In this document: one piece after another, positions 11,537 through 50,440 of the stretch
Numbering within the stretch: the first letter of the stretch is position 1
Layout: each line of letters starts with the position of its first letter
Virus record (IMG/VR): IMGVR_UViG_3300019776_000461
Span: 20,703-84,702 of that record
Source: a virus
DNA length: 64,000 bases
Reading direction: 5' to 3' (one strand)
Program-made: the position numbers and the translations under genes
The notes under the pieces: generated by a model
The model's database searches: none
What the model saw: only the letters and a program-made list of their open reading frames with translations
Told to the model about the DNA's origin: nothing

Positions 11537-11543
11537 ACAATTA

Positions 11544-11551
11544 TATTTATA
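11544..11551 (+). promoter_or_regulatory. Putative late promoter TATTTATA
   Basis: Intergenic; heads the 11585-15086 block, which ends at a hairpin terminator. Confidence 0.55.
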
Positions 11552-11584
11552 GTATATGTATTACATTATATATTAGAAGAAAAT

Positions 11585-11902: not shown

Positions 11903-11912
11903 GAGACATTAA

Positions 11913-12833
11913 ATGAAAAAAACACAGACTAACAAAGTAAGTATTATTAAAGAAGATGTTTCTTCTGCAAATATAAGCCCCATAAGTTACATGGTGTTTA
12001 TAGATATTTCTAGTTATCTATCAAAAGGGCGTGGTTTATTAAGTTCTATGTTTGCCGCTAAACCAAGTGAATCTATTACAAAATGGTTTGGTAAAGTAAA
12101 AGAAGATGAAACTTATAAGGAAAATGAAGAGGCATTCAAAGCTATTTCTTCAAGATTTATGGGCAATCCTATTTTGAAAAAACTTTATAGTTCAATAGAC
12201 AAACTTAAAACTGTTTCAACAGGGGAAACAGATCAAAGTGAAAGAGATAAAGATATTGAAAAATTATTGGGTAAAATTAGTTTATTTATTAAAAATAGAC
12301 TTACAAAAAAAGAAAGGGAACTTATTGGTAAAATGTCAACCGTAGTTAATTCAATTGGTAATAATATTTCCTCTGCAATAAAATCAGACTTAGAAGCAAT
12401 GGCAAAAGCAGAAGAACCAGAAAAACCAAAAGAAGAACCGAAGGAAGAACCCAAGAAAGAACCAGTAAAACCAATTGAAGCTCCAAAAGTAGAAGGAAAA
12501 GTAAATGAGCGATTGAAAAATAAAATTCAACCTACGAATGAAAACTTTCCAGGTCCAGGAGAAATAGTAGGTGCTAAGGATCTAGATTATGATATGTTGA
12601 GTTATTTTAATAGAATGAATAAAAAATTATCAATAGATACCAAGACCAAGAAAGGAATCTACGGTTCAGTTGCCAAGATGTATGGCAATTTTGTTTTCAA
12701 TGGAGATACCATAGATAAAAAAGATATATTACAAGTAAAGATACTAGAGTCTAATGTAAATGAGCGATTGAAGAACAAACTTCGTAAGAAAATCAAAGAA
12801 ATAATTAGAACACATATTATTAAATTAAAGTAA
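11913..12833 (+). CDS. Hypothetical (possible virion internal) protein with internal duplication
   Basis: 306-aa ORF; EPKEEP linker; VNERLKNK occurs twice. Confidence 0.7.
   Translation: MKKTQTNKVSIIKEDVSSANISPISYMVFIDISSYLSKGRGLLSSMFAAKPSESITKWFGKVKEDETYKENEEAFKAISSRFMGNPILKKLYSSIDKLKTVSTGETDQSERDKDIEKLLGKISLFIKNRLTKKERELIGKMSTVVNSIGNNISSAIKSDLEAMAKAEEPEKPKEEPKEEPKKEPVKPIEAPKVEGKVNERLKNKIQPTNENFPGPGEIVGAKDLDYDMLSYFNRMNKKLSIDTKTKKGIYGSVAKMYGNFVFNGDTIDKKDILQVKILESNVNERLKNKLRKKIKEIIRTHIIKLK
12501..12772 (+). repeat. 17-bp perfect direct repeat GTAAATGAGCGATTGAA (12501-12517, 12756-12772)
   Basis: Read directly; offset 255 nt = 85 codons, in frame. Confidence 0.85.
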
Positions 12834-12849
12834 ATTTGGAGTTTTTAAA

Positions 12850-13542: not shown

Positions 13543-13548
13543 CTGTAC

Positions 13549-14178
13549 GTGATAAAGTTAATAGATATATTAAAAGAAATGGGTATCGATAAAGGCGCAT
13601 TTCATGGATTTGGAATGAAGCCAAAAGATATGAGGGTTGATACTTGTAATGTTGAATGGACAAGTCCAGACCAAGATACAGGCTGCCCTGCATTTTCTGA
13701 TTCAACTAAGATAACAGAAGAGGATATTACTAAGGCTATTGAATATCTAAATGAAGAAAAATTGAAAACATTAATAGCATATTCAAGAGGTGGTGCAATA
13801 TTATTACAAGCGTTATCGATGGGAGCTATGAAACCATCTACGGTTTATTTGGTAGCACCTGCTTGGAATAGACAATGGCCAACTGTTTCATTAACAGGTG
13901 GAGAAGTGAATGGTAGTGGAGCTATAATACACGGTGGTAGTGATAATATAGTTCCACTAAAACATTCTGTAATTTTGTCCAAAGCAAGTGGTATGCCGTT
14001 GTATGTGTTCCCTGGAATGAATCATGTTAATATATTAAAAAATAAAGATAATCCAACTTCTGGAATACTATTGAAAAACTTAGAAGATGCCATGGGAGTT
14101 TTACCAGATTGGGGTGAAAGTGGAAAAGCAACGGAGGAAGAGTTAAAAATGCAAGAAGAGTTTGTAAATAATATTTGA
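13549..14178 (+). CDS. Alpha/beta hydrolase
   Basis: AYSRGG nucleophile elbow, HGGSDNIVP (Asp), GMNH (His). Confidence 0.75.
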   Translation: MIKLIDILKEMGIDKGAFHGFGMKPKDMRVDTCNVEWTSPDQDTGCPAFSDSTKITEEDITKAIEYLNEEKLKTLIAYSRGGAILLQALSMGAMKPSTVYLVAPAWNRQWPTVSLTGGEVNGSGAIIHGGSDNIVPLKHSVILSKASGMPLYVFPGMNHVNILKNKDNPTSGILLKNLEDAMGVLPDWGESGKATEEELKMQEEFVNNI

Positions 14179-14186
14179 GAAACAGG

Positions 14187-15086
14187 ATGAGTAAATTAAG
14201 TGTATTATTGGATGAAGTTAGAGATTTCAAAAAAAATGCAATATACAATGCTAAACTTCGTCTTAGAGAAACACTCATTAACGAAGAGGGTGAAGATGAA
14301 GCACAAGATGAAATAAAAGCAATTCTTAAAAAAGATTACTCTACATTTGTTAAAGAGTTGGGTGACAATATAAAAGATGAAAAATTTCTAAATGCTATAA
14401 AATCACTTTCTGATAAACAACCTGTTAAAGTATCAGGAATGTCTCCAGGAGTTACAGATTTACAACCAACACAGAATGAAGTTGTAATGGATAAATCTTT
14501 AAGTTATCCGCTAACAGATGTACCAAGTGCTGAACAATACTTAAAAGGCGGAGTTGTTGCAGTTGCAGGAAAATCAATTATAACATCAGGCGGTGGCAAG
14601 TATGTAATAGATGGACACCACAGATGGTCACAAGTTTTGTGTATTAATCCCGATGCTAAAATTAAAGCGTTAGATTTAACAGACATTAAAAATCCGATTG
14701 ACGCATTAAAAGCAACACAGATTGGAATAGCTGCACAAGCAGGTACAGTTCCAACCGCAGCAGGTGGTGGTGTAAATCTCTTCACAGTTAGTGAAGGTGA
14801 GTTAAAAAAATATGTTCTTGATAAAATAAAAGAGCCAGTTGTTGCTGTATTTGAAAAATATGGTAAAGGTGATACACCAGAAGCAATTGCAGATTATATT
14901 TGGGAAAATGTTCAGGTACTTAAAAAACAATCTCCGCCAGTAGCAGGTGCACCTAAGCGCGATGTGATGCCACAAACAGATGATGCACCACAATGGGTTG
15001 ATAATACTTTCAATGTAGAAAAATTACCTGAAGAATTAACTAATCGCTTCAAAGAACTATTACGATATAACAACAGAGATAAATAA
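14187..15086 (+). CDS. ParB/Srx-like N-terminal domain protein
   Basis: LQPTQ...YVIDGHHRW motif; ATG 14187 has AGG upstream. Confidence 0.7.
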   Translation: MSKLSVLLDEVRDFKKNAIYNAKLRLRETLINEEGEDEAQDEIKAILKKDYSTFVKELGDNIKDEKFLNAIKSLSDKQPVKVSGMSPGVTDLQPTQNEVVMDKSLSYPLTDVPSAEQYLKGGVVAVAGKSIITSGGGKYVIDGHHRWSQVLCINPDAKIKALDLTDIKNPIDALKATQIGIAAQAGTVPTAAGGGVNLFTVSEGELKKYVLDKIKEPVVAVFEKYGKGDTPEAIADYIWENVQVLKKQSPPVAGAPKRDVMPQTDDAPQWVDNTFNVEKLPEELTNRFKELLRYNNRDK

Positions 15087-22164: not shown

Positions 22165-22512
22165 GTGTTATAGTTCTTTGGAATAATGAAGGAGTATAGT
22201 TATGGATATTACATCATTTTTTATGGGTATATGTGCAGTTACAGTTTTAACAGCAGTTGCAGTTGTAGTTGTGGGTATGTTCAGAATAAACAAAACAAAC
22301 AAAGAACTAAATGATTTAGTTAGAAACCAAGATACGATGGATAGAATTATTGTTGATAATGAAAGAGAAATCAGAAGAACAATAGATTCCAGAATTGACA
22401 GTTTCGGTTCAAAGATTGAAAAAGAAATAAAATTCTTACATGAAAGAATTGATGGATTGAATAAAGTAAAATAAATAATAATTTTTAAAATGAATCCATA
22501 GAACTATAACAC
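22165..22512. repeat. 18-bp inverted repeat (17/18) flanking ORF 22202-22474
   Basis: GTGTTATAGTTCTTTGGA (22165-22182) vs TCCATAGAACTATAACAC (22495-22512). Confidence 0.8.
22202..22474 (+). CDS. Small membrane-anchored coiled-coil protein
   Basis: N-terminal hydrophobic helix then charged heptads; AAGGAG RBS. Confidence 0.7.
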   Translation: MDITSFFMGICAVTVLTAVAVVVVGMFRINKTNKELNDLVRNQDTMDRIIVDNEREIRRTIDSRIDSFGSKIEKEIKFLHERIDGLNKVK

Positions 22513-26962: not shown

Positions 26963-27661
26963 ATGACAGTTATAGAAGCGGTTTCTCCCGGTGACGCTTG
27001 GGTAAAAGTTTCTAAGCATTTGTTAGAGAAAGGGGAAAAAGTCGGTGAACTAATTGAAGAATTAAATGTAATGATGGAAATTACTCAGTTTGAAAGTGAT
27101 GATTGGTTTGATTCACACTTCAGAGAAGTAATGGGTGATGATAGAATTGATTTTGCTTCTTCTGTTACTTTCGTAGAACCTAAACCAAAAAAACCAATTA
27201 ACGATTTCTTTCAAGTAGAAGAAGGATTGGAATACCAATTCATTAAAGATCATTGGCATCAGTCCTATTGGGGAAGAATGATTAGTTGGCAAGGTACATT
27301 TAATCAAGTAGAAAACGTTATTAAAATTTTGAAACAAGGTAAAGCAGTTAAACGTTGTGAGTTAATTATATTTGACCCATCACGTGATTCACGCAATCCA
27401 TATTCTCAACCTTGTATGTTGATGATTGACTTGAAGCCACGTAATGGTAAGTTGTATTTAACTTCTGTTCTACGTTCTAATCGTGTTTCTAAAAGTGGTT
27501 ATGCTGATTATTCTGCTTTAGTTAATATGGGTAAGTTCTTAGCTAAAGAAAGTGATTTAGAGTTGGGAAAGGTTAGTGTATTAGCTTGTTCCTGCCACAT
27601 CGGTAAGATGAACAATGAACTTAAAAAAACAAAAGAATTGTTAAACATACTCAATAAATAA
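26963..27661 (+). CDS. Divergent thymidylate synthase / dNMP hydroxymethylase-family protein
   Basis: SYWGRM, NQVENVIKIL, catalytic PC (QPCML), LRSNRVSKSGYADY, SCHI. Confidence 0.75.
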   Translation: MTVIEAVSPGDAWVKVSKHLLEKGEKVGELIEELNVMMEITQFESDDWFDSHFREVMGDDRIDFASSVTFVEPKPKKPINDFFQVEEGLEYQFIKDHWHQSYWGRMISWQGTFNQVENVIKILKQGKAVKRCELIIFDPSRDSRNPYSQPCMLMIDLKPRNGKLYLTSVLRSNRVSKSGYADYSALVNMGKFLAKESDLELGKVSVLACSCHIGKMNNELKKTKELLNILNK

Positions 27662-27662
27662 T

Positions 27663-29168
27663 ATGTGCGGTATAATAGCAACCGTCGGTTATACTAAAAC
27701 TGACGTTGATAATATGTTGGAAACCATCGCTCACCGTGGTAAAGATAACCGTGGTATAAAAGAATTTTCTTGGGGCGATAGAAAAGTTATACTCGGACAC
27801 AATCGCCTTGCTATTAACGATACTTCTGCTGCAGGAAATCAACCGATGGAATGGGAAGGTATTCACTTAGTAGTTAACGGTGAAATATGGAATTATCCCG
27901 AACTAAGAAAAGAATACGAAGAAAGAGGATATGAGTTCAAATCAAATTCAGATTCAGAACTTATACTGTTTGTGTACAAAGAACAAGAATTGAAAAGACT
28001 TAACGGTATGTTTTCTTTTGTTATTTGGGATAACGGAAAGCTAATTCTTTCTCGTGATTGGGTTGGTAAGTTACCGCTCTATATTTTTAACAATAACACT
28101 TACATTATTGCAAGTGAAATAAAATCTATTGTTGAACAATTACCCAATGCTGAAATTAAATTTGTACCGAAAAATTCTTTGATTGAAATAGATGTAAGTA
28201 CAGATAAAATAACAGTTCATAAAGATTACTATTTTAACTTTTCAAATGAAACAACTTCACCTGAAACACATGAAGAATGCAGTATAACCACGTACAATCT
28301 ACTGGAGAACGCGGTAAGTAAAAGATTGTTATCTGATGTACCTATTGCAACTTCGTTGAGTGGTGGGATTGATTCCGCTGTTATAACGTATTTATTATCT
28401 ACTAAAATACCGAACTTAAAAGCATATACAATTGCTTTTGATGAAGATTCGCCTGACTTGAAGTACGCAAGAATAGTTGCAAAACATTTGGGTATTCAAT
28501 TAGTTGAAGTTTTAGTTCCAAGAAATGTAGAACTATTAAAACAAAGATTTTTGGAATCGATAAGAGTTATTGAATATCCATCTACCGTTCAAATGCAAGT
28601 TGGTATTCTACAATCGTTTATAGCAGAACAGATGGCAAAGGATGGAATAAAAGTTGCTTTTAGTGGTGAAGGTTCTGATGAAGCATACGGTTCTTATGGA
28701 ATGATAAGAATGTTCAGTAAGAAACCAGACTGGTCGGATATTAGAAAGAAATTATTTGAAAAGCAATACTATGGTAATTTATTACGCGGTAATACTATTT
28801 TCATGTATTATGGAACAATAGAATTACGTTGTCCGTTTTTCGATATTGATTTTCTAAATTACACTACTAACTTAACGAACGAATTTCTATCTGATAAATC
28901 TCAATGGAAACTTCCACTTGCAGATGCATTCAGACCGTACTTGCCTAAAGAAGTTATTGAACAAGAGAAACGTGCTTTTCAAAAAGGTACAAACTTCAAA
29001 GGATATATTGAAGATATAATTCTAAATGATAAAGAAATAAACTTTCGTAATAGAAAAAAGATGCTTCATGTAATTGGTGATAACTTTGAAAAGATTCATG
29101 GATTCTCACATAAGAAGATGAAGGGCGAACTTATTGGTAATAATGGTGGAATATTCAAATGGATTTAA
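27663..29168 (+). CDS. asnB: Asparagine synthetase B-like glutamine amidotransferase
   Basis: N-terminal MCGI Ntn nucleophile, HRGKD, GHNRLAI, NGEIWN, SDSE, LSGGIDS PP-loop, SGEGSDE. Confidence 0.88.
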   Translation: MCGIIATVGYTKTDVDNMLETIAHRGKDNRGIKEFSWGDRKVILGHNRLAINDTSAAGNQPMEWEGIHLVVNGEIWNYPELRKEYEERGYEFKSNSDSELILFVYKEQELKRLNGMFSFVIWDNGKLILSRDWVGKLPLYIFNNNTYIIASEIKSIVEQLPNAEIKFVPKNSLIEIDVSTDKITVHKDYYFNFSNETTSPETHEECSITTYNLLENAVSKRLLSDVPIATSLSGGIDSAVITYLLSTKIPNLKAYTIAFDEDSPDLKYARIVAKHLGIQLVEVLVPRNVELLKQRFLESIRVIEYPSTVQMQVGILQSFIAEQMAKDGIKVAFSGEGSDEAYGSYGMIRMFSKKPDWSDIRKKLFEKQYYGNLLRGNTIFMYYGTIELRCPFFDIDFLNYTTNLTNEFLSDKSQWKLPLADAFRPYLPKEVIEQEKRAFQKGTNFKGYIEDIILNDKEINFRNRKKMLHVIGDNFEKIHGFSHKKMKGELIGNNGGIFKWI

Positions 29169-29998
29169 TACAAACACCCATTGAAGAATATGAACTCAAA
29201 GGAAAAAAAGTTTGGGTTAAACGTGATGATTTAGTAGGTGATGGAATAAATTATCCAAGGTGGGCAAAGATAGAAGGAATTAAACAAATTCTAAGAAGCC
29301 CTGCCATTGATAAAAACAAACCATTAACGCACCTTTCAGTATATGGTAGTTGGACAGGTTGGGTTTTATCTAAACTCTGTAAAGAAGAAGGTATAGAATT
29401 TATTTCTTCTTATCCAGATACAAAGAAATTCCCAGTGAGTTTAATTGAAAGAGTAATGATAAATGGTGGAAAATTAAATCCACTAAAACCAAATATAATG
29501 GCGATACTAAATAATCGTGTAAAGAAACAAGCAATGGAAAACGGGTGGCAAATGTTACCGTATGCGTTCAATCATCCAATGTATATTGCATACATGGGTA
29601 GTAGAATGAAACAAGTATTGGAGGATAATGATTTTAACCACTTAGTTGTTTCGATGGGAAGCGGTGTAACGTGTTCTGGACTTATAAATTCATTCTTACA
29701 TTATACAGATTGGCGAGATGTTGTTAGTAACAGACGGCAAGTTCATGGCATTACAATGTCATCGATAAAATCAACGAGAAAAATATTAGAACAAAATGGA
29801 GCAGGTGGTAATAATAATATTCACATTTATAAATCGCCATTTGCTTTTGACGATATGATGTTGGATTATTCAGTACCGTTTGATTGTAATGAGTTTTGGG
29901 ATAAAAAAATGTGGTTCTGGTTAGAAGAAAACATTGAGAAATTAGACGGAAAAGTATTATTTTGGAATATTGGTGGTTCATATTTACAATCGATTTAA
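29159..29998 (+). CDS. PLP-dependent enzyme, fold type II (ACC deaminase / D-Cys desulfhydrase / TrpB-like)
   Basis: TPIE...VWVKRDDL...K, VVSMGSGVTCSG phosphate-binding loop, LFWNIGG. Confidence 0.75.
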   Translation: MDLIQTPIEEYELKGKKVWVKRDDLVGDGINYPRWAKIEGIKQILRSPAIDKNKPLTHLSVYGSWTGWVLSKLCKEEGIEFISSYPDTKKFPVSLIERVMINGGKLNPLKPNIMAILNNRVKKQAMENGWQMLPYAFNHPMYIAYMGSRMKQVLEDNDFNHLVVSMGSGVTCSGLINSFLHYTDWRDVVSNRRQVHGITMSSIKSTRKILEQNGAGGNNNIHIYKSPFAFDDMMLDYSVPFDCNEFWDKKMWFWLEENIEKLDGKVLFWNIGGSYLQSI

Positions 29999-30020
29999 TA
30001 TAAATAAAGGAGTTATGAAA

Positions 30021-30527
30021 ATGGCACAGACGTGGCATAGAAGATGGGATGATAGTTATGCTGAGGAAGCATTCAAGAACAGATTAAATTTACCTATTAA
30101 GTATGTAAAGTTAAGTAAAGACGCAGTTAAACCAGAATACTCACAAGACGGTGATGCTGGTATGGACTTAACAGCGACTTCATTTAGAGTTACAGATACT
30201 TTCATGGAATTTGGAACTGGTATTGCGGTACAGATTCCAGAGAATCATGTTGGACTTTTATTTCCAAGAAGTTCAATTACAAAATCTTCACCAGGCGTTT
30301 CTCTAAAAAATTCAGTTGGTGTTATAGATTCAAATTATCGTGGTGAAATTCTTGTGAGATTTGAATTACCTTACTCAGGAGAGGTGGGTGAAAATATTCC
30401 AGTTGTTGGTGATAGAGTTGCACAATTGGTTATTATTCCATACCCAAGAGTGAAATTCGTAGAAGTAGAGAAACTACCCGATACAAACCGTGGTCAAGGC
30501 GGATTTGGTTCAACAGATAAACAGTAA
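30021..30527 (+). CDS. dut: Trimeric dUTPase
   Basis: AGMDL, PRSS, GVIDSNYRGE, RVAQL, RGQGGFGST (alternative start 30015). Confidence 0.95.
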   Translation: MAQTWHRRWDDSYAEEAFKNRLNLPIKYVKLSKDAVKPEYSQDGDAGMDLTATSFRVTDTFMEFGTGIAVQIPENHVGLLFPRSSITKSSPGVSLKNSVGVIDSNYRGEILVRFELPYSGEVGENIPVVGDRVAQLVIIPYPRVKFVEVEKLPDTNRGQGGFGSTDKQ

Positions 30528-30533
30528 CTTATA

Positions 30534-30541
30534 TATTTATA
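30534..30541 (+). promoter_or_regulatory. Putative late promoter TATTTATA
   Basis: Intergenic, 33 nt before ATG 30575. Confidence 0.55.
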
Positions 30542-30574
30542 GTAAACAAATTCGTTTACTTATAGAGAAGCACA

Positions 30575-31204
30575 ATGTCAAAATTAACTAATATATTAAA
30601 AGAAAGTGGTTTATCGAGATTGGTTTACCACATGGAAATGCACGATTGCGGTACAATTACAGCCTTCCGTTCTAAAGAAGGCTGTGGTTTACCTGAAGAT
30701 TTACCGTACGCTCTACAAGATAACAAAAAAAGAAATGCTCAATTAAAAGCAAAACTTGAAATGATGGGGTACGGAACAACCGCAGTTAAAGGTGCTTATA
30801 TTGAAAACTACGGAACACCTGAAGCAATTGAAGTACGTGAAGATGTTTTCTTTGTTGTGGATTTACAAGACAAAGGAAACCTTGAAGCAGATTTAAGAAG
30901 ATTAGGTGAAGAGTATATGCAAGATTCTATTTTGTTTATACCAAGAGGTGGTAGAGGTTCTGTTCTCATCGGTACAAACCATTGTTCAGATTATCCAGGA
31001 TATGGCAGAACAATGCAATTCAATGATAGACAAATGGGCAAAGGTGGTCAGTTCATGACAAAAGTAAATGGTAGACCTTTTATATTTGAATCTAATTTAC
31101 TTGAACAAGTTGGAAACCATAACTATTATAGTGTTGCAAACAACATGGGTAAGTGGGCAATGAAAACTATTGCAAATAAAGATTGGAAAGATATTGAAAT
31201 TTAA
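30575..31204 (+). CDS. Putative S-adenosylmethionine lyase (T3 SAMase-like)
   Basis: ITAFRS...NKKRNAQL...GAYIE...RED...LGEEYMQDSILF matches in order the T3 SAMase VSAFRS...NMSRH...GCYRE...EEK...NEWEQDCVLV as recalled. Confidence 0.6.
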   Translation: MSKLTNILKESGLSRLVYHMEMHDCGTITAFRSKEGCGLPEDLPYALQDNKKRNAQLKAKLEMMGYGTTAVKGAYIENYGTPEAIEVREDVFFVVDLQDKGNLEADLRRLGEEYMQDSILFIPRGGRGSVLIGTNHCSDYPGYGRTMQFNDRQMGKGGQFMTKVNGRPFIFESNLLEQVGNHNYYSVANNMGKWAMKTIANKDWKDIEI

Positions 31205-31226
31205 TTTTAATCGTAAAGGTATTATT

Positions 31227-31511
31227 ATGAGTCGTTCATATAGAAAAACTTCCATAATTGGAAATGCTGGTTCTTCTGAAAAAATGGATAAAATTATAGC
31301 TCATCGTAAGAGTAGAAAATATATTAAAGACCACATTACTGCTACTCATGGTGATTTGGAATTGTTAGAAGAAATTCTAATGCCAAAAGAAGATGAAATA
31401 TCTGATAATTGGAATACATCGAAAGATGGAAAAACTTATTGGAATACAAATGAAAATGAAAATGATTCAGATTGGTTAAAGCGATTTAAGAAAAAAATGA
31501 TGAGGAAATAA
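31227..31511 (+). CDS. Hypothetical basic protein (MSRSYRK...)
   Basis: ATG 31227 after AAGG; avoids overlap with the previous gene. Confidence 0.65.
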   Translation: MSRSYRKTSIIGNAGSSEKMDKIIAHRKSRKYIKDHITATHGDLELLEEILMPKEDEISDNWNTSKDGKTYWNTNENENDSDWLKRFKKKMMRK

Positions 31512-31516
31512 ATGTT

Positions 31517-31816
31517 ATGGACGTTTTATTAGTAGAACCAAAAACAAATAAGTTTACCGCTTATTTATACGATGGCACAACAGCAGCAGCGAATGAAGCA
31601 TGCTCAAAGTGGCCATGCATTATGACTGCAAGTAACAGTTATAAGGATAAGTGGGTTTTGAAGTTTGAAGCATCGAAAGAAGAGTGCTTACCTGGCCAAT
31701 ATATTGTTAACGAAAGTAAGGGGTATTCCATTTATACTCAAGCGGAATTCTTAGAAAAGTATGATGTAGTTTACGATAACCGAAACAAAATCGGTAATTT
31801 TTTATCCGAAGATTAA
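31517..31816 (+). CDS. Hypothetical protein
   Basis: 99-aa ORF in operon. Confidence 0.65.
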   Translation: MDVLLVEPKTNKFTAYLYDGTTAAANEACSKWPCIMTASNSYKDKWVLKFEASKEECLPGQYIVNESKGYSIYTQAEFLEKYDVVYDNRNKIGNFLSED

Positions 31817-31828
31817 TTTAGGAATGTT

Positions 31829-32989
31829 ATGTATTTAGATTACTTTGACAAGTTCAAAGGAATGAGTCCTTACCTTGCGATTGATGAAATAGAATGGAAG
31901 TATATTCAAGAAACATTTGAGAAGGAAGATGTTTTAGAATCGATGGCAACACTTTTAATGACTTATGATTTACCATACGCTGACATTTCTATTGAAGATA
32001 CAACTTCTGAGTTTCAAAAGTTGAAGGCGATTAAGTGGAAAGAAATGTTAAAAGAAGGTAAGTGGAAAGCCAGACATAGTTACAATTTAGATTTTGAATG
32101 GAACGGAAAACCATTATTCTTTTCAAGAAGTAATGTAGGTAACTCTGCATCAAATTACTTTCAACAGGTAAACCGTTGGAAAGTTGATGCTGCATACTCA
32201 CCTGGTCCAGCAAGAAGTTGGACTTCTCTTCGTTCTATGATTTCTATATCAAAAGCGTTCTATACATTGAAATTTAAAAAGATTGATAAAGCAGCAGTTC
32301 GTTCTGCACTAAGTCTTAGAAAATATGTTTGCTCTCAATTCAAACCAAATGTTGCAAAGGCATTATACGATATGTATGGTGCTAAAACAATATTAGACTT
32401 CTCGGCAGGATGGGGTGATAGATTATGTGGATTCTATGCATCGGATAAAGCAGAAACATATATTGGAATAGACCCTGCTCCAAATAATCATTCTGTTTAT
32501 CATGAACAAGCAGATTTTTATTCTAAACAATTAGGTTGGTTTGATACGAAAAAATCAGTACATTTATACGAAGCACCCGCGGAAGATTGGGATAATTCAG
32601 AGTGGATAGGTAAAGTTGATTTAATATTTACATCGCCTCCTTACTTTGATACCGAACGATATTCAAACGATGATAAACAAAGTTGGGTTAGGTACAAGAA
32701 TATAGATTCTTGGAACAAAGACTTTTTACATAAGGCATTGGATAATGTATGGGAAACTCTTAAATCTGGTGGTACAATGATTATAAACATTGCAGACATT
32801 TATAATAGACCAGCAAAATCATATTTGAAAATATGTGAACCTATGGTAGAATACATGAAAGAAAAAGTGGATTGTATATACGAAGGTGCGATGGGTATGG
32901 AAATGGCAGTACGGCCGTCCGATACTGGAATAGATTATGATGATAAAGCAAAATTTGCAGAACCAATGTGGGTATTCAAAAAGGCATAA
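31829..32989 (+). CDS. DNA amino-methyltransferase (SPPY; m4C or m6A)
   Basis: LDFSAGWGDRL (motif I), FTSPPYF (motif IV), LKSGG. Confidence 0.8.
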   Translation: MYLDYFDKFKGMSPYLAIDEIEWKYIQETFEKEDVLESMATLLMTYDLPYADISIEDTTSEFQKLKAIKWKEMLKEGKWKARHSYNLDFEWNGKPLFFSRSNVGNSASNYFQQVNRWKVDAAYSPGPARSWTSLRSMISISKAFYTLKFKKIDKAAVRSALSLRKYVCSQFKPNVAKALYDMYGAKTILDFSAGWGDRLCGFYASDKAETYIGIDPAPNNHSVYHEQADFYSKQLGWFDTKKSVHLYEAPAEDWDNSEWIGKVDLIFTSPPYFDTERYSNDDKQSWVRYKNIDSWNKDFLHKALDNVWETLKSGGTMIINIADIYNRPAKSYLKICEPMVEYMKEKVDCIYEGAMGMEMAVRPSDTGIDYDDKAKFAEPMWVFKKA

Positions 32990-35555: not shown

Positions 35556-36275
35556 ATGGAAAAATCAAAGTTATTAAACTTCATTAGCAAATATCACTTG
35601 GGTAAATTAGTTCAATCTGTTGCTTGGAATGCAAACGGTGGATTAACAACTCGTTTTATTTCTGATGACAAATGTGTTGTGGGAGAAATTAAACTAAAAA
35701 GTTTCAGCGGTCAAGTAGCAAAGTTTGGTGTGTACGATACAAACTTACTTACAAGTCTTCTTGGTGTTCTTGGTAACACTATTGACTTCAAAATTAACGG
35801 TGCAGACGATAAAGCATTCGCTTTAACATTAAGTGATAAATCTACAACTGTTAATTATATGTTAGCTGATTTGGCAGTAATTCCACCTGCACCAGAGTTG
35901 AAAGAACTTCCACCATTTGAATTAGAAATGTCAATTACAAAAGATTTTATTGATAAGTTTATCAAAGCTAAATCTGCTTTATCTGATATTGAAAAGTTTA
36001 CTATTCTTAAAAACGGTAAGACTGATAAATGGCAAATTGTAATTGGTTATGCTAATACAAACTCTAATAGAATTTCAATCGATATTGATTGTACTTGCGA
36101 ACAAGATTTTGAACCAATTTCTTTTTCAGCAAAGTATTTCAAAGAAATTCTATCGGCAAATAAAGATTTGAACGGTGGTTCAATGAAAGTTTCCTCACAA
36201 GGTTTAGCAAAAGTTGAATTTGATATTGACGATTTTGAATCAAGATATTTCTTAGTAAAATTGGAAAACAACTAA
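35556..36275 (+). CDS. DNA polymerase sliding clamp (gp45/PCNA-like)
   Basis: 239 aa, two-domain alpha/beta pattern, between PolB and clamp loader; ends KVSSQGLAKVEF...SRYFLV. Confidence 0.75.
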   Translation: MEKSKLLNFISKYHLGKLVQSVAWNANGGLTTRFISDDKCVVGEIKLKSFSGQVAKFGVYDTNLLTSLLGVLGNTIDFKINGADDKAFALTLSDKSTTVNYMLADLAVIPPAPELKELPPFELEMSITKDFIDKFIKAKSALSDIEKFTILKNGKTDKWQIVIGYANTNSNRISIDIDCTCEQDFEPISFSAKYFKEILSANKDLNGGSMKVSSQGLAKVEFDIDDFESRYFLVKLENN

Positions 36276-37909
36276 TGAAAAAGTATTTCTATGAAAAAAG
36301 TGATATTCTGTCCTGGCCATCGAACATAACGTATGGCGAACTGGTTACGTTTGACGATAACAGGTTTTATGAATGGGCAGAAGATTTACGAATGAGGATT
36401 CTAACTGATTGGGATAATAATGGGAAACCACCAGTCGTTGGAAGAACTGAGGAAGAGATTAATCAATCATTCTCGAAACTCCGTCAGTTTAACGCTTCAT
36501 CTATTTTTCATAGTGTGGAAGATGGCAATGACTCTGACATGATTGGAGTCATTGCTAATTTCACAAAAGTTGGTTCTGCTGCAAATCAATTCTTTCCAAC
36601 AATGCTAAAAACTAAAATTGCATCTGGCATGGGAAGTGATTCTGGTAAATCGATTTACGATTATTTTACAGACTCTATGAAAGAAACATTTCATCATATT
36701 ATGAAGAGAAGTGTTTACAACGATTCTATGTATTTGTACAGTAAGTCTTTATCTTCAAATCAAGTAAAGAATCCTTACTTCAAAGAAGGTGAAACTCTTC
36801 GTGATTTCTTCATGGCGTATAAAAATGGTGATGGAAGATTCGATGGACAAGGTGTTCGTATTTCTAAAATATCGTGCACTCTACAAACTCAAAGTAAGAA
36901 ATATAAAAAGTATTTAACTATAAAGGCAGATGAGATTAGACAGTTCTTAGCGGAAGGTTTGATTGATGACTTCATGTTATTTACTTTGGGTAATCCAGAA
37001 GATTTAACTGATACATTTAATATACAAAAAGAAGGTTCTGAACCGAGGGCAAATGTTTATATTGTTCGTGTTTACGAAAAGAATATAAAACTATTTCCAA
37101 GTGCAATACAAGTATTTCGTATGTCATTCTGTCAGCCAGCGGTAAACTTTCCGCCTATGACCGCAAAGTTTCTTTATGAACACTTTACACAACATATACC
37201 TGCAAGTGAAACAGTAACAGTATATGACCCAAGTTCTGGCTGGGGTGGTCGTATTTTAGGTGCAATGTCTGTTGGTCGCCCAATACATTATGTTGGAACA
37301 GACCCAAATACAGATAACTTTATTGATGAATTAGGAATAAGTCGTTATGAATACCTTGCAGACTTTTTTCTAAAATCAATAGGCGAGCGAGGTACAAATG
37401 TATCTTCAAAGTTTTTTGTTACAAATGAAAATCATACATACGAACTTTTCCAAGATGGTTCGGAAACAATTCAATTTAATCCTAAATTTCAAAAGTATAA
37501 AGGTAAGTTAGATTTTGTTTTTACTTCACCTCCATACTTTAATAGAGAAATGTATTCTGATGATGCAACTCAATCGTATAAAGCACATAGTGAGTATGCT
37601 GATTGGCGTGATAACTTTTTACGCCCAACATTAGAAACAGCGGTTGCTTATTTGAAATCAGATCGTTATCTTTGTTGGAATATAGCTGATATTAGAATTT
37701 CAACTAACAAAATAGTTCACCTTGAAAAAGATTCAATTGATATATTAGAATCATTGGGAATGGAGTATGTAGGTAAATTTGGAATGGCAATGGGTAGAAT
37801 GATTGGTAACTCAGACCAAGAAAAATTGGCTGAAAGAACTTCTAATAAAGTTTTTCACAAAGGTCAATGGTGGAAACAAGAACCTATTTTTATATTTAAA
37901 AAACCATAA
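36275..37909 (+). CDS. DNA amino-methyltransferase (SPPY)
   Basis: VNFPPMTAK, YDPSSGWGGR, GTDPN, FTSPPYFNRE. Confidence 0.8.
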   Translation: MKKYFYEKSDILSWPSNITYGELVTFDDNRFYEWAEDLRMRILTDWDNNGKPPVVGRTEEEINQSFSKLRQFNASSIFHSVEDGNDSDMIGVIANFTKVGSAANQFFPTMLKTKIASGMGSDSGKSIYDYFTDSMKETFHHIMKRSVYNDSMYLYSKSLSSNQVKNPYFKEGETLRDFFMAYKNGDGRFDGQGVRISKISCTLQTQSKKYKKYLTIKADEIRQFLAEGLIDDFMLFTLGNPEDLTDTFNIQKEGSEPRANVYIVRVYEKNIKLFPSAIQVFRMSFCQPAVNFPPMTAKFLYEHFTQHIPASETVTVYDPSSGWGGRILGAMSVGRPIHYVGTDPNTDNFIDELGISRYEYLADFFLKSIGERGTNVSSKFFVTNENHTYELFQDGSETIQFNPKFQKYKGKLDFVFTSPPYFNREMYSDDATQSYKAHSEYADWRDNFLRPTLETAVAYLKSDRYLCWNIADIRISTNKIVHLEKDSIDILESLGMEYVGKFGMAMGRMIGNSDQEKLAERTSNKVFHKGQWWKQEPIFIFKKP

Positions 37910-37910
37910 A

Positions 37911-38996
37911 ATGAAAATTGATATTGAAAGTTTTGGAAAATTTATAAATGCTGACCCACTTGAAATTCGTTTGTGGAAAGAAACAGATGAATTTTTTAGT
38001 GACAAGCGTACGTTAGATGATACAATAGATTGTGTTTTTCAGTATTACCGTAAACATGGTTATCCATATATGAGTATTACTGATGAAGAAAAACATGAAC
38101 ACATGAAGAAACTTCAAAAATATGACTACGATAAACTGTTTAAGAATAATGATATTATTCAAACAATGCATGGACTTCGCTTGGCTTGGTCTTATTTTCC
38201 ACATGGAATGGAAGTGAAATGTGGTAATTCTAAAATGTCTCCTATGGATAATTTTTTGAATGACCATACATTTAAGATGACAATACGTAAGTGCTTGAAA
38301 TGGTTATATAAGCACACGGGCAATGGAAGTTGGCAAGAAAACCGTTTACGTCAATCATTAAAAATATATTCTGGTGTTCAAGGTGTTTCAAACTTTAGAC
38401 CAACTGCTGCAGGTGCTATATATAAAAGATTTGGTGGCAATGGTGTAATGTGGGATATGTCATGTGGTTGGGGTGGTAGATTAGTTGGTGCATTAGCATC
38501 ACCGTATATCGAAACATATATTGGAACAGAACCATCAACGAAAACATTTGAAGGACTTTGTAAACTACGTGATGATTTCTCGTATCTTGGTAAAGATATT
38601 CAACTACACATGATGGGTTCAGAAGATTTTATTCCAGAGAAAGAAAGTTTAGATTTGTGTTTTACTTCACCACCATATTTCGATACAGAAAAATATGCAG
38701 ATGAAGAAACTCAATCGTATAACAAGTTTCCAACTCGTGATACTTGGGGTTCTGGCTTTCTTTTTGGAACATTTAAGAATTGTTTCCATGGGTTGAAGCC
38801 AGGTGGTTATATGTTAATAAACATTGCTAATACACCGAAGTATAAAGACTTAGAAGAAATGACAATTCATTATGCAAAAGAAGCTGGATTTATTGAAGAA
38901 AATACTATAAATCTTATTCTTTCTTCTGTAATGGGTGCTGGTTATAAAAGAGAACCTATTTTTATATTTCGGAAGCCGTTGGTAGATAAGGAATAA
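37911..38996 (+). CDS. DNA amino-methyltransferase (SPPY)
   Basis: SNFRPTAA, WDMSCGWGGR, FTSPPYFDTE, LKPGG; start moved to MKIDIE. Confidence 0.8.
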   Translation: MKIDIESFGKFINADPLEIRLWKETDEFFSDKRTLDDTIDCVFQYYRKHGYPYMSITDEEKHEHMKKLQKYDYDKLFKNNDIIQTMHGLRLAWSYFPHGMEVKCGNSKMSPMDNFLNDHTFKMTIRKCLKWLYKHTGNGSWQENRLRQSLKIYSGVQGVSNFRPTAAGAIYKRFGGNGVMWDMSCGWGGRLVGALASPYIETYIGTEPSTKTFEGLCKLRDDFSYLGKDIQLHMMGSEDFIPEKESLDLCFTSPPYFDTEKYADEETQSYNKFPTRDTWGSGFLFGTFKNCFHGLKPGGYMLINIANTPKYKDLEEMTIHYAKEAGFIEENTINLILSSVMGAGYKREPIFIFRKPLVDKE

Positions 38997-40721: not shown

Positions 40722-41101
40722 GGAATAAAATGGCTATTAAAGAAATAGATTTAGGGCGGAAACAAAATGGGGCTGTATCTGAAATTGAAGAGAAGTTTCC
40801 TAATATGACCAAGGAGTTCAAACGTATTCAACAAGAACAGTATGAACTCTTCTGTGCAAAGCAAAAGAACTATGGCCCAGATAATATTTCCATGGGAAGT
40901 AATCTCGAACGAGAAGACGATCGTAAACTTTCTTTGCAGGGTTTATTCTTTCGTATTAACGATAAGATAAACAGATACAAACAAATGATTATGTTTGGTT
41001 CACAAGACGCAGTTGGTGAATCTCTAAATGATACATTCAAAGATATTTCTGTTTATGGAATTATCGCACAACTTGTTCAATCTGGTAAATGGGGGAAATA
41101 A
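40718..41101 (+). CDS. DUF1599 / nucleotide-modification-associated domain 1 (Nmad1)
   Basis: KQKNYG, RINDKINR, ESLNDTFKDISVYGII. Confidence 0.7.
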   Translation: MRNKMAIKEIDLGRKQNGAVSEIEEKFPNMTKEFKRIQQEQYELFCAKQKNYGPDNISMGSNLEREDDRKLSLQGLFFRINDKINRYKQMIMFGSQDAVGESLNDTFKDISVYGIIAQLVQSGKWGK

Positions 41102-42258
41102 TGAGTATATATATTTGGACTTCGGAATATGTAAGTGAAGGTCATCCTGATAAAATAGCTGACCAAATTTCAGATGCAGTTCTTGATTGGTACTTACAAA
41201 GAGACCCAGATGCAAAGGTTGCGTGTGAGGTTATGGTAAAGGATAGTGATATTTATGTTTCTGGTGAAATAAAATCAACGGTTGATAAAGATAAAAGAAC
41301 TTTAGAATTATCACTAACTCGATTAATTAGAGGACTTATAAAAGATATTGGATACACAAAAGAAGAATCCCCTTTCTTTAATTCAGACTATTGCCGTATT
41401 CATTTCAATATATCAACTCAATCATCAGAGATTAATCAAGCAGTTGATAAAGGAGATGTTGTTACAGCAGGAGACCAAGGTATTATGTTTGGTTATGCAA
41501 CTCGTGAAACTCCAACGTATATGCCGGTAGCAATTTACTTAGCTAAAAAACTAATTGAAGTTGCAACGGATATTAGAAAGAAAGGTAGTAAACTTGGACA
41601 TGTACAAAAACTTCGTCCTGATATGAAGAGTCAGGTGTCTGTTGCGTATAGTGGTAATGAAGCAGTTGGTATTCATTCTGTTGTATTTTCAACTTGTCAT
41701 TCTGAGTTGATTTCACTTGAAGAACTTAGAAAGTATTTCCACTCTGATATTTTACCAAAGGTATTAGAAAGTATTCCAGAAGAACTTGCTAAACTGTTTA
41801 CAGATAAAACTGTTTACCATATAAATCCTGCTGGTGAATGGAACATAGGTGGTCCAGTTTCTGATTGTGGATTAACTGGTAGAAAGATTGTGGTTGACCA
41901 ATATGGTGCTGATTGTGAAATTGGTGGCGGTGCTTTCTCAGGCAAAGACCCAAGTAAAGTTGATAGAAGTGCAGCATATATGGCTCGTCATATTGCCTTA
42001 AAAACACTTCATGAAAATGAAGAAGCAAATAAAATTAAAGTTCAATTAGCATATGTAATCGGTGAAGAGTTTCCTGTTTCATATCGTATATTTGACCCAA
42101 CAACTGGAAAAGAATATGGACTTGGTAAATTTAGTTTCAATGATTTAACCCCAAATAAAATCATTGAAAGATTAAAATTAAAAACTCCTATTTATTTACA
42201 GACTGCTAAGTACGGTCATTTTGGAAATAAAGATTTAGAATGGGAGAAAATTGGATGA
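41101..42258 (+). CDS. metK: S-adenosylmethionine synthetase
   Basis: TSEYVSEGHPDKIADQISD, AGDQGIMFGYA, RPDMKSQV, DCGLTGRKIVVD, GGGAFSGKDPSKVDRSAAY, YGHFG. Confidence 0.97.
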   Translation: MSIYIWTSEYVSEGHPDKIADQISDAVLDWYLQRDPDAKVACEVMVKDSDIYVSGEIKSTVDKDKRTLELSLTRLIRGLIKDIGYTKEESPFFNSDYCRIHFNISTQSSEINQAVDKGDVVTAGDQGIMFGYATRETPTYMPVAIYLAKKLIEVATDIRKKGSKLGHVQKLRPDMKSQVSVAYSGNEAVGIHSVVFSTCHSELISLEELRKYFHSDILPKVLESIPEELAKLFTDKTVYHINPAGEWNIGGPVSDCGLTGRKIVVDQYGADCEIGGGAFSGKDPSKVDRSAAYMARHIALKTLHENEEANKIKVQLAYVIGEEFPVSYRIFDPTTGKEYGLGKFSFNDLTPNKIIERLKLKTPIYLQTAKYGHFGNKDLEWEKIG

Positions 42259-42746
42259 AACTAAAAGACTTGATAATGGAAGCGTTTACTCTTAACGGTA
42301 GAGTTATGTTATATCACTTTTCAAAAGAAGATTTAGGAAATGTAGCGATTCTCGATCCAGCATTATCAAGTCAACGTCCATCCTCTTGGTCACGTAACGA
42401 TTATAAACTATCTAAAGTACCAAGAGTATTTTACTATACAGACTTAAATAAAATTGAGCGTATGGTTAAAAGTCATAATTTATATGCAGCAGAATATGAT
42501 GGTACTAGAATATTAAATGTACCGCAGGTATTGAAGGAGTATCAAACAAATCCAGATTCACTTGCTATCAAAAATCCAAACGCTTTCAAGATAATGCAAT
42601 CGTCCGTAAACCAATATGGTGCAATAGATTATGATGCAATGTTAAGAGCAGCAGGACAATTCTTTGATGGTGTATTCTACGATACTGGTAACTTACCAAT
42701 TGTCAATTTATTTGTACCATTAAGAGCAAAAAAACAAAATGTCTGA
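42255..42746 (+). CDS. Hypothetical protein, possible ADP-ribosyltransferase-like fold
   Basis: LYHFS...VFYYTD...FDGVFY strand pattern; N-terminal MKLKDLIME. Confidence 0.4.
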   Translation: MKLKDLIMEAFTLNGRVMLYHFSKEDLGNVAILDPALSSQRPSSWSRNDYKLSKVPRVFYYTDLNKIERMVKSHNLYAAEYDGTRILNVPQVLKEYQTNPDSLAIKNPNAFKIMQSSVNQYGAIDYDAMLRAAGQFFDGVFYDTGNLPIVNLFVPLRAKKQNV

Positions 42747-45339: not shown

Positions 45340-45346
45340 GGAAATA

Positions 45347-47268: not shown

Positions 47269-47276
47269 CATGAATC

Positions 47277-48041: not shown

Positions 48042-48108
48042 TTTGGGAGAGAGGGAATGTAAGTTAGAGGTTAGGGAATTTTAATTTTATAAAAGGGAGA
48101 GACTCAGG

Positions 48109-50439: not shown

Positions 50440-50440
50440 T

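Follow-up and report, generated by a model that had tools for sequence, protein, structure and literature searches.

A T3-type S-adenosylmethionine lyase-family gene with a candidate capsid-targeting leader in a T4-like phage, and a proposal for its delivery with the virion

Results

Gene content of the locus

The window, by which we mean the whole 64,000-nucleotide stretch of DNA analysed here, comes from a freshwater, T4-like phage whose contig is about 48% complete and begins within the capsid gene. The locus of interest holds a single gene and its upstream signals, with the following features:

30533..30541, + strand: predicted late-type promoter motif ATATTTATA; the lyase ATG follows at 42 nt
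30564..30570, + strand: purine-rich, ribosome-binding-like stretch AGAGAAG, read from the sequence and kept in close relatives
30575..31204, + strand: SAM lyase-family gene, 209 aa plus stop, ATG start (PF23780, AlphaFold, VIA-align)
30575..30604, + strand: leader MSKLTNILKE (residues 1–10), candidate capsid-targeting sequence and prohead-protease site, ending Leu-Lys-Glu
30659..30673, + strand: TAFRS (residues 29–33), first beta strand
30713..31024, + strand: core matched by Pfam S-AdoMet_lyase (residues 47–150; profile positions 12–113 of 133)
30791..30805, + strand: G73-A-Y75-I-E77
30839..30844, + strand: acidic pair E89-D90
30920..30928, + strand: Q116-D117-S118
31100..31201, + strand: C-terminal helical extension (residues 176–209)

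The sequence-only reading had assigned a SAM lyase-like protein to 30534–31204. The open reading frame is real, and position 30534 belongs to the upstream motif; the gene itself begins at 30575. Its translation starts with the reported MSKLTNILKE and contains all five of the motifs named in the sequence-only reading, in the order claimed: TAFRS (residues 29–33), NKKRN (50–54), GAYIE (73–77), RED (88–90) and EEYMQDSILF (111–120). In both clades, those with 95% and 67% identical lyases, the gene adjoins a dUTPase gene in a replication/nucleotide block. The lyase has a near-neutral isoelectric point (6.1–6.4).

Family membership, fold and conserved residues

The 209-residue product matches PF23780 with 40.9 bits (E 2.5e-10; Pfam cut-off 28), the family in which T3 SAMase scores 143 bits and which all 120 listed relatives carry. 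No SAM lyase came up when the PDB was searched by sequence, using either the lyase alone or a profile of 56 sequences; the relation is visible only through Pfam, profile–profile and fold comparison. By hhalign, the lyase profile aligns with T3 SAMase at E 2.8e-5 and all five motifs are paired, which bears out the likeness to the T3 enzyme that the sequence-only reading had pointed out. The structural comparison with T3 SAMase and Svi3-3 suggested at that stage gives the same answer. For an AlphaFold model with a pLDDT of 83.8, the best seven Foldseek matches in the PDB are all SAM lyases, and VIA-align places the model closest to T3 SAM lyase (Z 10.4 for 8bb1_E, rmsd 3.5 Å over 126 residues; Z 9.7 for 7ock_L), then to Svi3-3 (6zm9; Z 6.9), with unrelated folds at Z 5.0 or below. 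The model shows the ferredoxin/PII-like core with the additional strands of the T3 type.

Residue conservation was read from the 56-sequence subfamily alignment and compared with characterised enzymes. In TAFRS, which lies opposite T3 SAFRS, A30 is near-invariant and R32 is invariant. The G73-A-Y75-I-E77 segment, with an invariant G73 and an E77 kept in at least 90% of the sequences, corresponds to Gly56 and Tyr58 of Svi3-3, whose roles have been described (PMC7877911), and to G55 and Y57 of T3; hhalign pairs it with T3 GCYRE. The acidic pair E89-D90, of which E89 is at least 90% conserved, lies opposite E67-E68 of T3 (Glu69 of Svi3-3), in a register that may shift by one residue within alignment error (E89 against T3 E67, D90 against E68). 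The key glutamates of the two known enzymes are T3 E68 and Svi3-3 E69. Q116, D117 and S118, each at least 90% conserved, are the counterparts of Gln104-Glu105-Ser106 in Svi3-3 and of Q94-D95 in T3, where the SAMase variants Q94A and D95A are impaired. G73, E89 and Q116-D117-S118 match SAM-binding residues of both enzymes, and the Gly, Tyr, Glu and Gln-Asp-Ser positions that contact the substrate are near-invariant across the subfamily. Beyond model residue 175, where the T3 alignment stops, the C-terminal extension is predicted to form helices at 184–187 and 190–201 (pLDDT 89–96). Based on the Pfam match, the modelled fold and the conserved substrate-binding residues, 30575–31204 encodes a T3-type S-adenosylmethionine lyase-family protein, predicted to be catalytically active; as such, it would split SAM into methylthioadenosine and homoserine lactone.

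An N-terminal leader shared with unrelated proteins

The leader ends in the L/I-x-E tripeptide that is the cleavage rule of T4-type prohead proteases (PMC9026906). The pattern KLxx[ILVM][ILVM]xE occurs five times in the 27,057-residue proteome of the source phage, each time within the first 14 residues of an open reading frame, and the complete relative G001 carries six to seven leaders of the same class. Four other genes in the window are relevant here:

11913..12833, + strand: basic 306-aa protein, pI 9.6; in Microcystis phage Mel-JY01 its homologue follows the lyase domain as a fusion
13549..14178, + strand: unrelated protein with a leader of the same class, MIKLIDILKE; weak alpha/beta-hydrolase match
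14187..15086, + strand: unrelated 299-aa protein with a leader of the same class, MSKLSVLLDE; 5' DNA and codons unlike those of the lyase
42255..42746, + strand: unrelated protein of 163 aa; its leader, MKLKDLIME, is related

We rejected the idea that the genes owe their leaders to a common DNA cassette, as upstream DNA and codon choice differ between them. Because the 5' DNA of the leader genes is unrelated, the likeness is one kept at the peptide level. Across the lyase family, 237 of 240 members have Glu as the P1 residue of the leader and 208 of 240 have Leu or Ile at P3, and many of the 10-residue leaders resemble that of T4 IPII/IPIII. The Paraglaciecola phage PANV1 homologue, gp48, begins with a near-exact copy (MKTFSEFLGE against MKTYQEFIAE in T4), and seven PANV1 open reading frames share this leader, gp48 and six others. 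After the (L/I)-x-Glu site the sequence continues as SGLSR in PANV1 gp48 and as SSLSR in the Mel-JY01 protein.

The sequence-only reading had also suggested that the leader might be an inhibitory pro-peptide. We rejected this idea for want of support: in the model the leader is a low-confidence, unstructured coil, and T4 leaders act in targeting and not in inhibition (PMC9026906).

The protease that would act on such a leader, a Peptidase_S77 of the gp21 type, is encoded by the close relatives G001 and G002 and by Mel-JY01, PANV1, Slicko01, CP220 and Lak-C1. Its gene is not in the 48%-complete source contig, a fragment that begins inside the capsid gene, and is present in G001, a complete genome whose lyase is 95% identical. 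In Mel-JY01 the lyase is fused ahead of the homologue of the 11913 protein (BLASTP 36% identity, E 2e-29) within a late 'cargo' module, and the N-terminal IIKE of the 11913 protein aligns with IINE, an I-x-E site, at the fusion junction.

A late-type promoter motif upstream of the lyase

The lyase has its own upstream motif, as had been reported: TATTTATA lies at 30534–30541, and the extended form ATATTTATA at 30533–30541. The window holds six copies of ATATTTATA against 3.5 expected, and 13 of 100 shuffles reach six; because this raw count is not above chance, the evidential weight of the motif comes from strand and spacing only. The placement departs strongly from chance: all six copies are on the coding (+) strand, each 42–46 nt upstream of an ATG, and the other genes so preceded include those for the tail tube, baseplate hub, baseplate wedge and a giant baseplate protein. 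In G001, where 28 copies are on the coding strand and 3 on the other, the genes that follow the motif include those for the portal, baseplate wedge, tail fibre and fibre assembly. The copy upstream of the lyase is kept in the relatives with 95% and 67% identical lyases. Since the same motif stands at a fixed distance of about 42 nt before structural genes, it is predicted to be a late-type promoter, and the lyase has one of its own.

A terminator scan found no terminator between the upstream dUTPase operon and the lyase, so earlier, read-through expression is possible as well. The sigma-70 and terminator scans near the lyase and MetK were otherwise uninformative in this AT-rich DNA. A PANV1 'sigma factor' query found no gp55-like late sigma factor in G001 or Mel-JY01, proteins of this kind being too diverged for the result to carry weight. 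Metatranscriptome contigs from four studies overlap the lyase; they give no starts, strand or timing, and DNA carry-over may contribute to them.

MetK and methyltransferases

The window encodes the following enzymes that would make or use SAM:

31829–32989: DNA methyltransferase, N6_N4_Mtase
36275–37909: DNA methyltransferase, N6_N4_Mtase
37803–38996: DNA methyltransferase, N6_N4_Mtase
41089..42258, + strand: complete phage MetK (SAM synthetase), 389 aa, three MetK domains, in a separate operon
48109–48780: sugar-type methyltransferase (Methyltransf_24/TylF)

The complete metK that had been placed at 41101 is the open reading frame at 41089–42258, whose product matches E. coli MetK over its full length (E 6.5e-89). 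Three DNA methyltransferases had been counted and are there; of the two sugar-type enzymes also claimed, one was found and the second was not (Pfam, E ≤ 1e-3).

The further claim, that this MetK resupplies the SAM that the lyase destroys, fared less well. MetK lies 10 kb from the lyase in its own operon, which has no late motif; indeed, ATATTTATA does not occur between 31 kb and 55 kb of the window. The lyase and a phage MetK are found together in the source phage, G001, G002 and Mel-JY01, which form one lineage of six, and MetK is absent from the lyase-carrying PANV1, Slicko01, CP220, Lak-C1 and S-CREM2. We rejected MetK as an obligate partner of the lyase on this co-occurrence. The phage MetK is probably a separate gene that feeds the phage's own methyltransferases.

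Homologues in virion proteomes

Gp6 of Synechococcus phage S-CREM2, a member of the same family by hhalign (98.8%, E 7.8e-17) and Pfam (70 bits), was detected by mass spectrometry with 19 peptides in CsCl-purified virions, and its authors already proposed that it enters the cell together with the DNA (Front Microbiol 2023, PMC10665884). The concept of a virion-associated SAM hydrolase is therefore known since that 2023 report. Among the papers searched, none combines SAM lyase with terms for capsid targeting or internal proteins, and the paper on PANV1 reports no virion proteomics. For Campylobacter phage IBB_35, a list of 38 virion proteins includes the products of neighbouring genes but not the homologue, gene 5-9 (PMC3322345, Table S2); the proteins were identified from gel bands, at limited depth, and this homologue has only 28% identity to the lyase.

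Discussion

We propose that the lyase is made late, travels in the virion and enters the cell together with the DNA, and we give this reading a probability of about 60%. Made late in infection, the lyase would be brought into the prohead core by its leader. The gp21-type prohead protease would then cut the leader off after Glu10, and at the next infection the mature enzyme, starting at Ser11, would be injected along with the DNA. In the new host it would lower SAM ahead of phage gene reading, which may blunt defences that depend on SAM, namely type I/III restriction and BREX. The sequence-only reading had likewise pictured a late, virion-carried lyase, and this part of it stands as a reasonable one, given the late-type motif, the T4-type leader and the presence of S-CREM2 gp6 in virions.

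In the main competing reading the protein is a SAM lyase of the ordinary cytoplasmic kind, which acts in the infected cell and does not enter the virion at all; it would be expressed by read-through from the upstream nucleotide-metabolism operon, late, or both. We consider this a minor though appreciable possibility. The (L/I)-x-E-S-x-L-S-R element stands before every lyase domain, including the internal ones of tandem proteins, so that it may belong to the fold itself, as a structural element at its start, instead of serving as a cleavage site. The position of the gene beside dUTPase in the 95% and 67% clades, the missing terminator after dUTPase and the failure to detect the IBB_35 homologue in virions would all fit such an enzyme. 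Against it, the first eight residues of the leader are common to unrelated proteins of the same genome, and in PANV1 the T4 internal-protein leader is found on gp48 and on six other open reading frames. If the element served in helix capping, Asp, Ser or Thr would be tolerated, yet the residue is almost always Glu. A cytoplasmic enzyme also leaves the lyase's own promoter motif of the structural-gene type and the occurrence of S-CREM2 gp6 in virions to be accounted for. A point against our own proposal is that an active lyase made late would compete with the phage's own three DNA methyltransferases.

That apparent conflict with MetK and the methyltransferases would be removed if the substrate were a SAM derivative and not free SAM, either SAM-AMP, the signal molecule of type III CRISPR, which would make the protein an anti-CRISPR like the candidate AcrIIIB4, or another sulfonium compound. 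SAM-AMP lyases have the same fold and the key glutamate, and there is a phage enzyme that acts on SAM-AMP and leaves SAM intact (PMC12255297); the sequence alone does not tell which substrate is used. The model nevertheless resembles T3 SAM lyase (Z 10.4) much more closely than it does the SAM-AMP lyase of C. botulinum (Z 4.6), and the Pfam and profile matches go to the T3 family; we hold a derivative to be a very unlikely substrate. Hardly better placed, and in our view quite improbable, is the sequence-only reading taken in full, in which the lyase is held inactive by its leader up to head maturation and depletes SAM once injected, after which a phage MetK that is insensitive to the lyase restores SAM for methylation of progeny DNA. 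It is true that lyase, MetK and three DNA methyltransferases coexist in the source phage, G001, G002 and Mel-JY01, and that the late motif is found on the lyase and on neither MetK nor the methyltransferases. MetK is missing from the five other lyase-carrying lineages, however, and a leader that is disordered in the predicted structure, of a kind that in T4 acts in targeting, argues against the inactivation step.

Late packaging and injection of the lyase could also be part of a larger scheme, which we put forward tentatively and think unlikely as a whole. Here the lyase would be one of a modular set of leader-addressed, injected cargo proteins, together with those encoded at 13549, 14187, 42255 and 11913, and would be coupled to a timed SAM switch: the injected lyase would collapse host SAM at entry, disarming SAM-dependent defences, and the phage MetK would then rebuild the SAM pool for the three phage DNA methyltransferases.

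If injected with the DNA, the lyase would act before any phage gene is read. This is the only time at which restriction and BREX can be pre-empted, and T3 secures this advantage by producing SAMase ahead of its other proteins. The leader also predicts which other proteins of the source phage are injected, and this lineage-specific variant could serve to bring foreign proteins into heads, an application already realised with the T4 leader. The subfamily is large, with 1041 clusters at 50% identity, nearly all labelled 'hypothetical', such that a correct name and delivery model would alter the annotation of many large aquatic, gut and Campylobacter phages.

Comparison with known systems

T3 gp0.3 SAMase (PDB 8BB1, 7OCK) belongs to the same Pfam family and is the best structural match, and its motifs pair with those of the lyase (T3/lyase: SAFRS/TAFRS, GCYRE/GAYIE, EE/ED, EQDCVL/MQDSIL). 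The two proteins are nonetheless only about 16% identical, and the lyase is longer (209 against 152 aa), adding the N-terminal leader and a helix, an inserted loop at 33–46 and the C-terminal helical extension. Whereas gp0.3 is the product of the first early gene, at about 10,000 copies per cell, the lyase has a predicted late-type promoter. Gp0.3 binds host MetK by its own N-terminal tail, which has no counterpart in the lyase; MetK binding and inhibition are known as properties of the T3 enzyme.

Svi3-3 (PDB 6ZM9, 6ZNB) shares the ferredoxin/PII-like core, and its Gly56, Tyr58, Glu69 and Gln104-Glu105-Ser106 all have counterparts in the lyase. It is a short, trimeric form with the active site between subunits, unlike the lyase with its longer, T3-type build, and its turnover is 9.5 per s (PMC7877911). 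The C. botulinum SAM-AMP lyase and AcrIIIB4 (PDB 9GAD; PMC12255297) have in common with the lyase the superfamily, the key glutamate and lyase chemistry, and differ in their substrate, in having no known leader and in structure, with a Z of only 4.6 to our model (9gad_E).

S-CREM2 gp6, annotated as 'SAM hydrolase (virion protein)', is homologous over residues 5–177, including the L-E-E/SSLSR element, and has a 10-residue leader that ends in L-E-E. It differs in its length of 414 aa, with a long basic C-terminal half, and in coming from a phage that has no MetK; the paper that describes it proposes neither a targeting nor a cleavage mechanism and does not analyse promoters (PMC10665884). A further parallel is with T4 IPII and IPIII. 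Their cargo is small and basic and the lyase, a predicted cargo, is a near-neutral enzyme whose leader is a lineage-specific variant, M-x-K-L-x-x-I/L-L-x-E. In T4, Asp in place of the final Glu of the leader allows targeting and blocks cleavage. The two systems have in common an N-terminal leader of 10 residues that closes with (L/I)-x-Glu, a gp21-type protease in the lineage, the recurrence of one leader on proteins that are otherwise unrelated, and genes grouped in variable loci; late expression, a feature of the T4 proteins, is predicted for the lyase from its promoter motif.

A divergent member of the T3-type SAM lyase family

The lyase gene comprises 209 codons on the + strand of the window. 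A sequence-only reading of this DNA had noted a resemblance of its product to the SAMase of phage T3, and all five motifs that it quoted are found in the translation in the order stated, whereas the start that it quoted, 30534, belongs to the upstream motif TATTTATA and not to the gene. The window protein scores 40.9 bits against Pfam PF23780 (E 2.5e-10; cut-off 28 bits), a model that gives 143 bits to T3 SAMase as taken from the T3 record. Profile alignment of 56 relatives with T3 SAMase (E 2.8e-5) pairs TAFRS with SAFRS, NKKRN with NMSRH, GAYIE with GCYRE, ED with EE and MQDSIL with EQDCVL, and the resemblance noted earlier is therefore correct.

Searches of the PDB by sequence alone, with the single protein and with the profile, missed the relation to SAM lyases. 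The AlphaFold model is confident (pLDDT 83.8, pTM 0.82), and phage SAM lyases fill the first seven places among its Foldseek matches in the PDB. VIA-align matches the model to T3 SAM lyase (Z 10.4, rmsd 3.5 Å over 126 residues, and Z 9.7) and to Svi3-3 (Z 6.9 and 6.5), with CutA/PII-like folds at Z ≤ 5.0 and C. botulinum SAM-AMP lyase at Z 4.6. SAM is held in Svi3-3 by Gly56, Tyr58, Glu69 and Gln104-Glu105-Ser106 (PMC7877911), and T3 counterparts are E68, Q94 and D95 (bioRxiv 10.1101/2023.02.27.530186). The corresponding residues of the window protein are G73, Y75, E89/D90, where the glutamate register is uncertain by one position, and Q116-D117-S118; among the 56 relatives G73 is invariant and E89, Q116, D117 and S118 are conserved at 90% or more. 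The protein thus belongs to the T3-type SAM lyase family as a divergent, long-form member and, we infer, is very probably active.

One database yielded 490 relatives, and a second yielded 1041 clusters at 50% identity. Carriers of the subfamily include Microcystis phage Mel-JY01, Paraglaciecola phage PANV1, Alishewanella phages, Lak megaphages and CP220-like Campylobacter phages, in all of which the members are annotated 'hypothetical'. Many of the longer members are tandem domain duplications.

Genomic setting

The contig carrying the window is viral (84.7 kb, 33% G+C, an estimated ~48% complete). It begins inside a T4-like major capsid gene and runs from capsid through sheath, tube, tape measure and baseplate genes to a replication and nucleotide-metabolism block. 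Mel-JY01 is the closest named phage (PolB 62% identical), and a complete 177-kb relative, G001, encodes a lyase 95% identical to the window protein. Near-identical DNA is present in freshwater, lake and river metagenomes from several independent studies.

Features in the window and in related phages
11543-15086: block headed by a late motif; genes 11585, 11913, 12850, 13549 and 14187 (named by window start)
26963-30527, directly 5' of the lyase: thymidylate-synthase-like protein, AsnB-type amidotransferase, 279-aa protein (no Pfam match), dUTPase
30575-31204, + strand: SAM lyase
40718-41101: DUF1599 ('nucleotide modification associated'), adjoining metK
43915-55444: sugar-modification block; at least six glycosyltransferases (GT1, GT2, GT7 types), DUF6165, TylF-like methyltransferase (48109), NAD-dependent epimerase/dehydratase (53015)
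55449-55847: DUF5856 protein (PHROG 'starvation-inducible transcriptional regulator'), also behind a late motif
Mel-JY01 record 22183-22410 (L007 8184-8411): annotated ribosomal protein S21 (RpsU) gene in the head-gene module, between prohead protease and capsid gene
Mel-JY01 record 52405-53691 (L001 7983-9269): 428-aa protein, lyase domain plus homologue of ORF 11913
PANV1 MW805361.1, starts 6388, 20162, 24784, 25612, 25842, 26618, 53022 (L034-L036): leader-bearing ORFs, all annotated hypothetical

The genes directly 5' of the lyase, together with DUF1599, make a base-modification pathway plausible, and the sugar-modification block suggests glycosylated DNA or virion proteins.

A late-type promoter motif precedes the lyase

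The motif upstream of the lyase ATG recurs as ATATTTATA six times in the window, in all six cases on the coding strand and 42-46 nt 5' of an ATG, a placement that exceeds chance although the bare count does not. It precedes the genes for tail tube, baseplate hub, a baseplate wedge/spike protein and a 2599-aa baseplate protein. G001 has 28 copies on the coding strand against 3 on the other, among them copies ahead of portal, baseplate wedge subunit, tail fibre and fibre-assembly protein; the motif was not found before PolB, helicase, RecA, MetK or the methyltransferases. Relatives with 95% identical lyases keep it ahead of the lyase, and those with 67% identical lyases keep a one-base variant. 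This pattern is the one expected of a late promoter, predicted here from placement, and the form of the motif is comparable to that of the T4 late promoter. In G001 the motif is tandemly duplicated ahead of the DUF5856 gene (reverse-complement coordinates 1618-1667).

No terminator was found between the dUTPase operon and the downstream lyase, so that earlier read-through into the lyase is possible. RNA-library contigs from four studies overlap the gene and are uninformative on starts or timing. One lake metatranscriptome contig (1411 nt, window 30495-31899), whose 92% likeness assigns it to a relative, starts ~40 nt ahead of the late motif and spans the lyase and two small downstream ORFs; shorter contigs from two other studies begin at 30555 and ~30572. 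Because contigs do not show transcript ends, these positions are only hints.

A candidate capsid-targeting leader

In T4, prohead loading needs no more than the first 10 residues of IPIII, after which the gp21 protease cuts behind L/I-x-Glu, a cut that Asp at position 10 blocks (PMC9026906; PMC3012670). The lyase leader, MSKLTNILKE, has exactly this length and type of ending. Its pattern, KLxx[ILVM][ILVM]xE, matches five times in the contig proteome (27,057 residues), always within the first 14 residues of an ORF; because this zone holds only 4.7% of the residues, the chance of five in five is ~2e-7. The carriers are the lyase, ORFs 13549 (weak alpha/beta-hydrolase match), 14187 (299 aa) and 42255 (163 aa), and one ORF that lies 5' of the window. 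These genes differ in 5' DNA and in codon choice, which indicates that the resemblance is maintained in the peptide and rules out a copied DNA cassette as its source. Leaders of this kind number six or seven in G001, where three neighbouring genes that follow a late motif each carry one.

Of 240 family members, whose leaders are mostly 5-20 residues long, 237 have Glu at P1 and the other 3 have Asp, and 208 have Leu or Ile at P3. Many 10-residue leaders, among them MKTYKDFLNE and MKRYKDFIKE, are similar to that of T4 IPII/IPIII, MKTYQEFIAE. PANV1 gp48, 41% identical to the window protein, begins MKTFSEFLGE, and six other PANV1 ORFs share this type of leader; all seven start M-K/Q-S/T-F/Y-x-E/Q-F/Y-L/I/V-x-E, almost the T4 sequence. 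Three of the six lie with gp48 in one small-gene cluster (4/7), and another immediately precedes the prohead protease gene. G001, its fellow close relative G002, Mel-JY01, PANV1, Slicko01, CP220 and Lak-C1 all encode a gp21-type protease (Peptidase_S77); none was found in the window contig, which is truncated. The earlier proposal that the leader keeps the lyase inactive is unsupported: the model shows residues 1-8 as low-confidence coil, and in T4 the leaders serve for targeting (PMC9026906).

Is the lyase delivered in the virion?

In Mel-JY01 the lyase domain forms the N-terminal half of the 428-aa protein at the end of the structural module. The C-terminal half is homologous to window ORF 11913-12833 (36% identity, E 2e-29), which occupies the same genomic slot directly behind a late motif, and IIKE near the N-terminus of that ORF aligns with IINE at the fusion junction. 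In this sister phage the lyase thus sits physically within the late 'cargo' locus, between two protease-type sites. The fusion has I-x-E sites at its N-terminus and domain junction and ends in a Pro/Glu/Lys-rich low-complexity tail. In the block at 11543-15086, the slot of the fusion, the encoded proteins carry short N-terminal segments that end in (I/L/V)-x-Glu (IIKE, LVNE, ILKE, LLDE); the block has the appearance of a variable cargo locus, similar to the internal-protein loci of T4.

An experimental precedent is gp6 of Synechococcus phage S-CREM2, an annotated SAM hydrolase detected in CsCl-purified virions (19 peptides, 26% coverage), which its authors propose enters the cell at infection (PMC10665884). 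By profile comparison gp6 is a true homologue of the lyase subfamily (hhalign 98.8%, E 7.8e-17 over window residues 5-177; Pfam 70 bits); the protein carries a 10-residue leader of its own that ends L-E-E, with another L-E-E immediately before SSLSR. As evidence on the other side, a gel-band study of Campylobacter phage IBB_35 listed 38 virion proteins, the products of genes 5-10, 5-12 and 5-13 included, without the homologue encoded by the neighbouring gene 5-9 (PMC3322345). Leaders of the CP220 type are long and end F-N-E.

Every lyase domain, even one internal to a tandem protein, is preceded by an (L/I)-x-E-S-x-L-S-R element, which may therefore belong to the lyase fold; this would weaken the packaging reading. 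The strong preference for Glu over Asp at P1 would favour a protease site, and polyproteins cut before each domain would also fit the pattern in tandem members. In the tandem SAM lyase/DUF3293 proteins (P0134, P0136, P0145, P0148, P0152, P0170, P0193, P0257), each domain has its own (L)-x-E-SSLSR wherever the element can be made out; these proteins may represent polyproteins or obligate pseudo-dimers. Overall, we put the probability of delivery of the lyase in the virion at about 0.6.

MetK and the supply of SAM

The complete phage metK reported earlier is present, as are three DNA methyltransferases and one TylF-like enzyme; a second sugar methyltransferase was not found with Pfam. MetK accompanies the lyase in G001, G002 and Mel-JY01 and was not found in the lyase carriers PANV1, Slicko01, CP220, Lak-C1 and S-CREM2. 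In the window it lies 10 kb from the lyase, in another operon and without a late motif. MetK is therefore not a general partner of the lyase; a timed scheme that destroys and then resupplies SAM is possible for this clade only.

Comparison with known systems

A single T4 head takes up tens to hundreds of leader-tagged molecules (PMC9026906). At the turnover measured for Svi3-3, 9.5 per s, 100 lyase molecules would cleave ~1000 SAM per second, by rough estimate enough to dent a pool of order 1e5 within minutes. This dose is far below the roughly 10,000 enzyme molecules made by T3 (bioRxiv 10.1101/2023.02.27.530186).

The enzyme family was already known, and a virion-associated member is already published (PMC10665884); our literature search found no paper linking SAM lyases with capsid-targeting sequences. 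What these data add is a lineage-specific leader variant with its statistics, evidence on the late motif drawn from a complete relative, the fusion in Mel-JY01, the family of leaders in PANV1 and Glu/Leu statistics for the whole lyase family.
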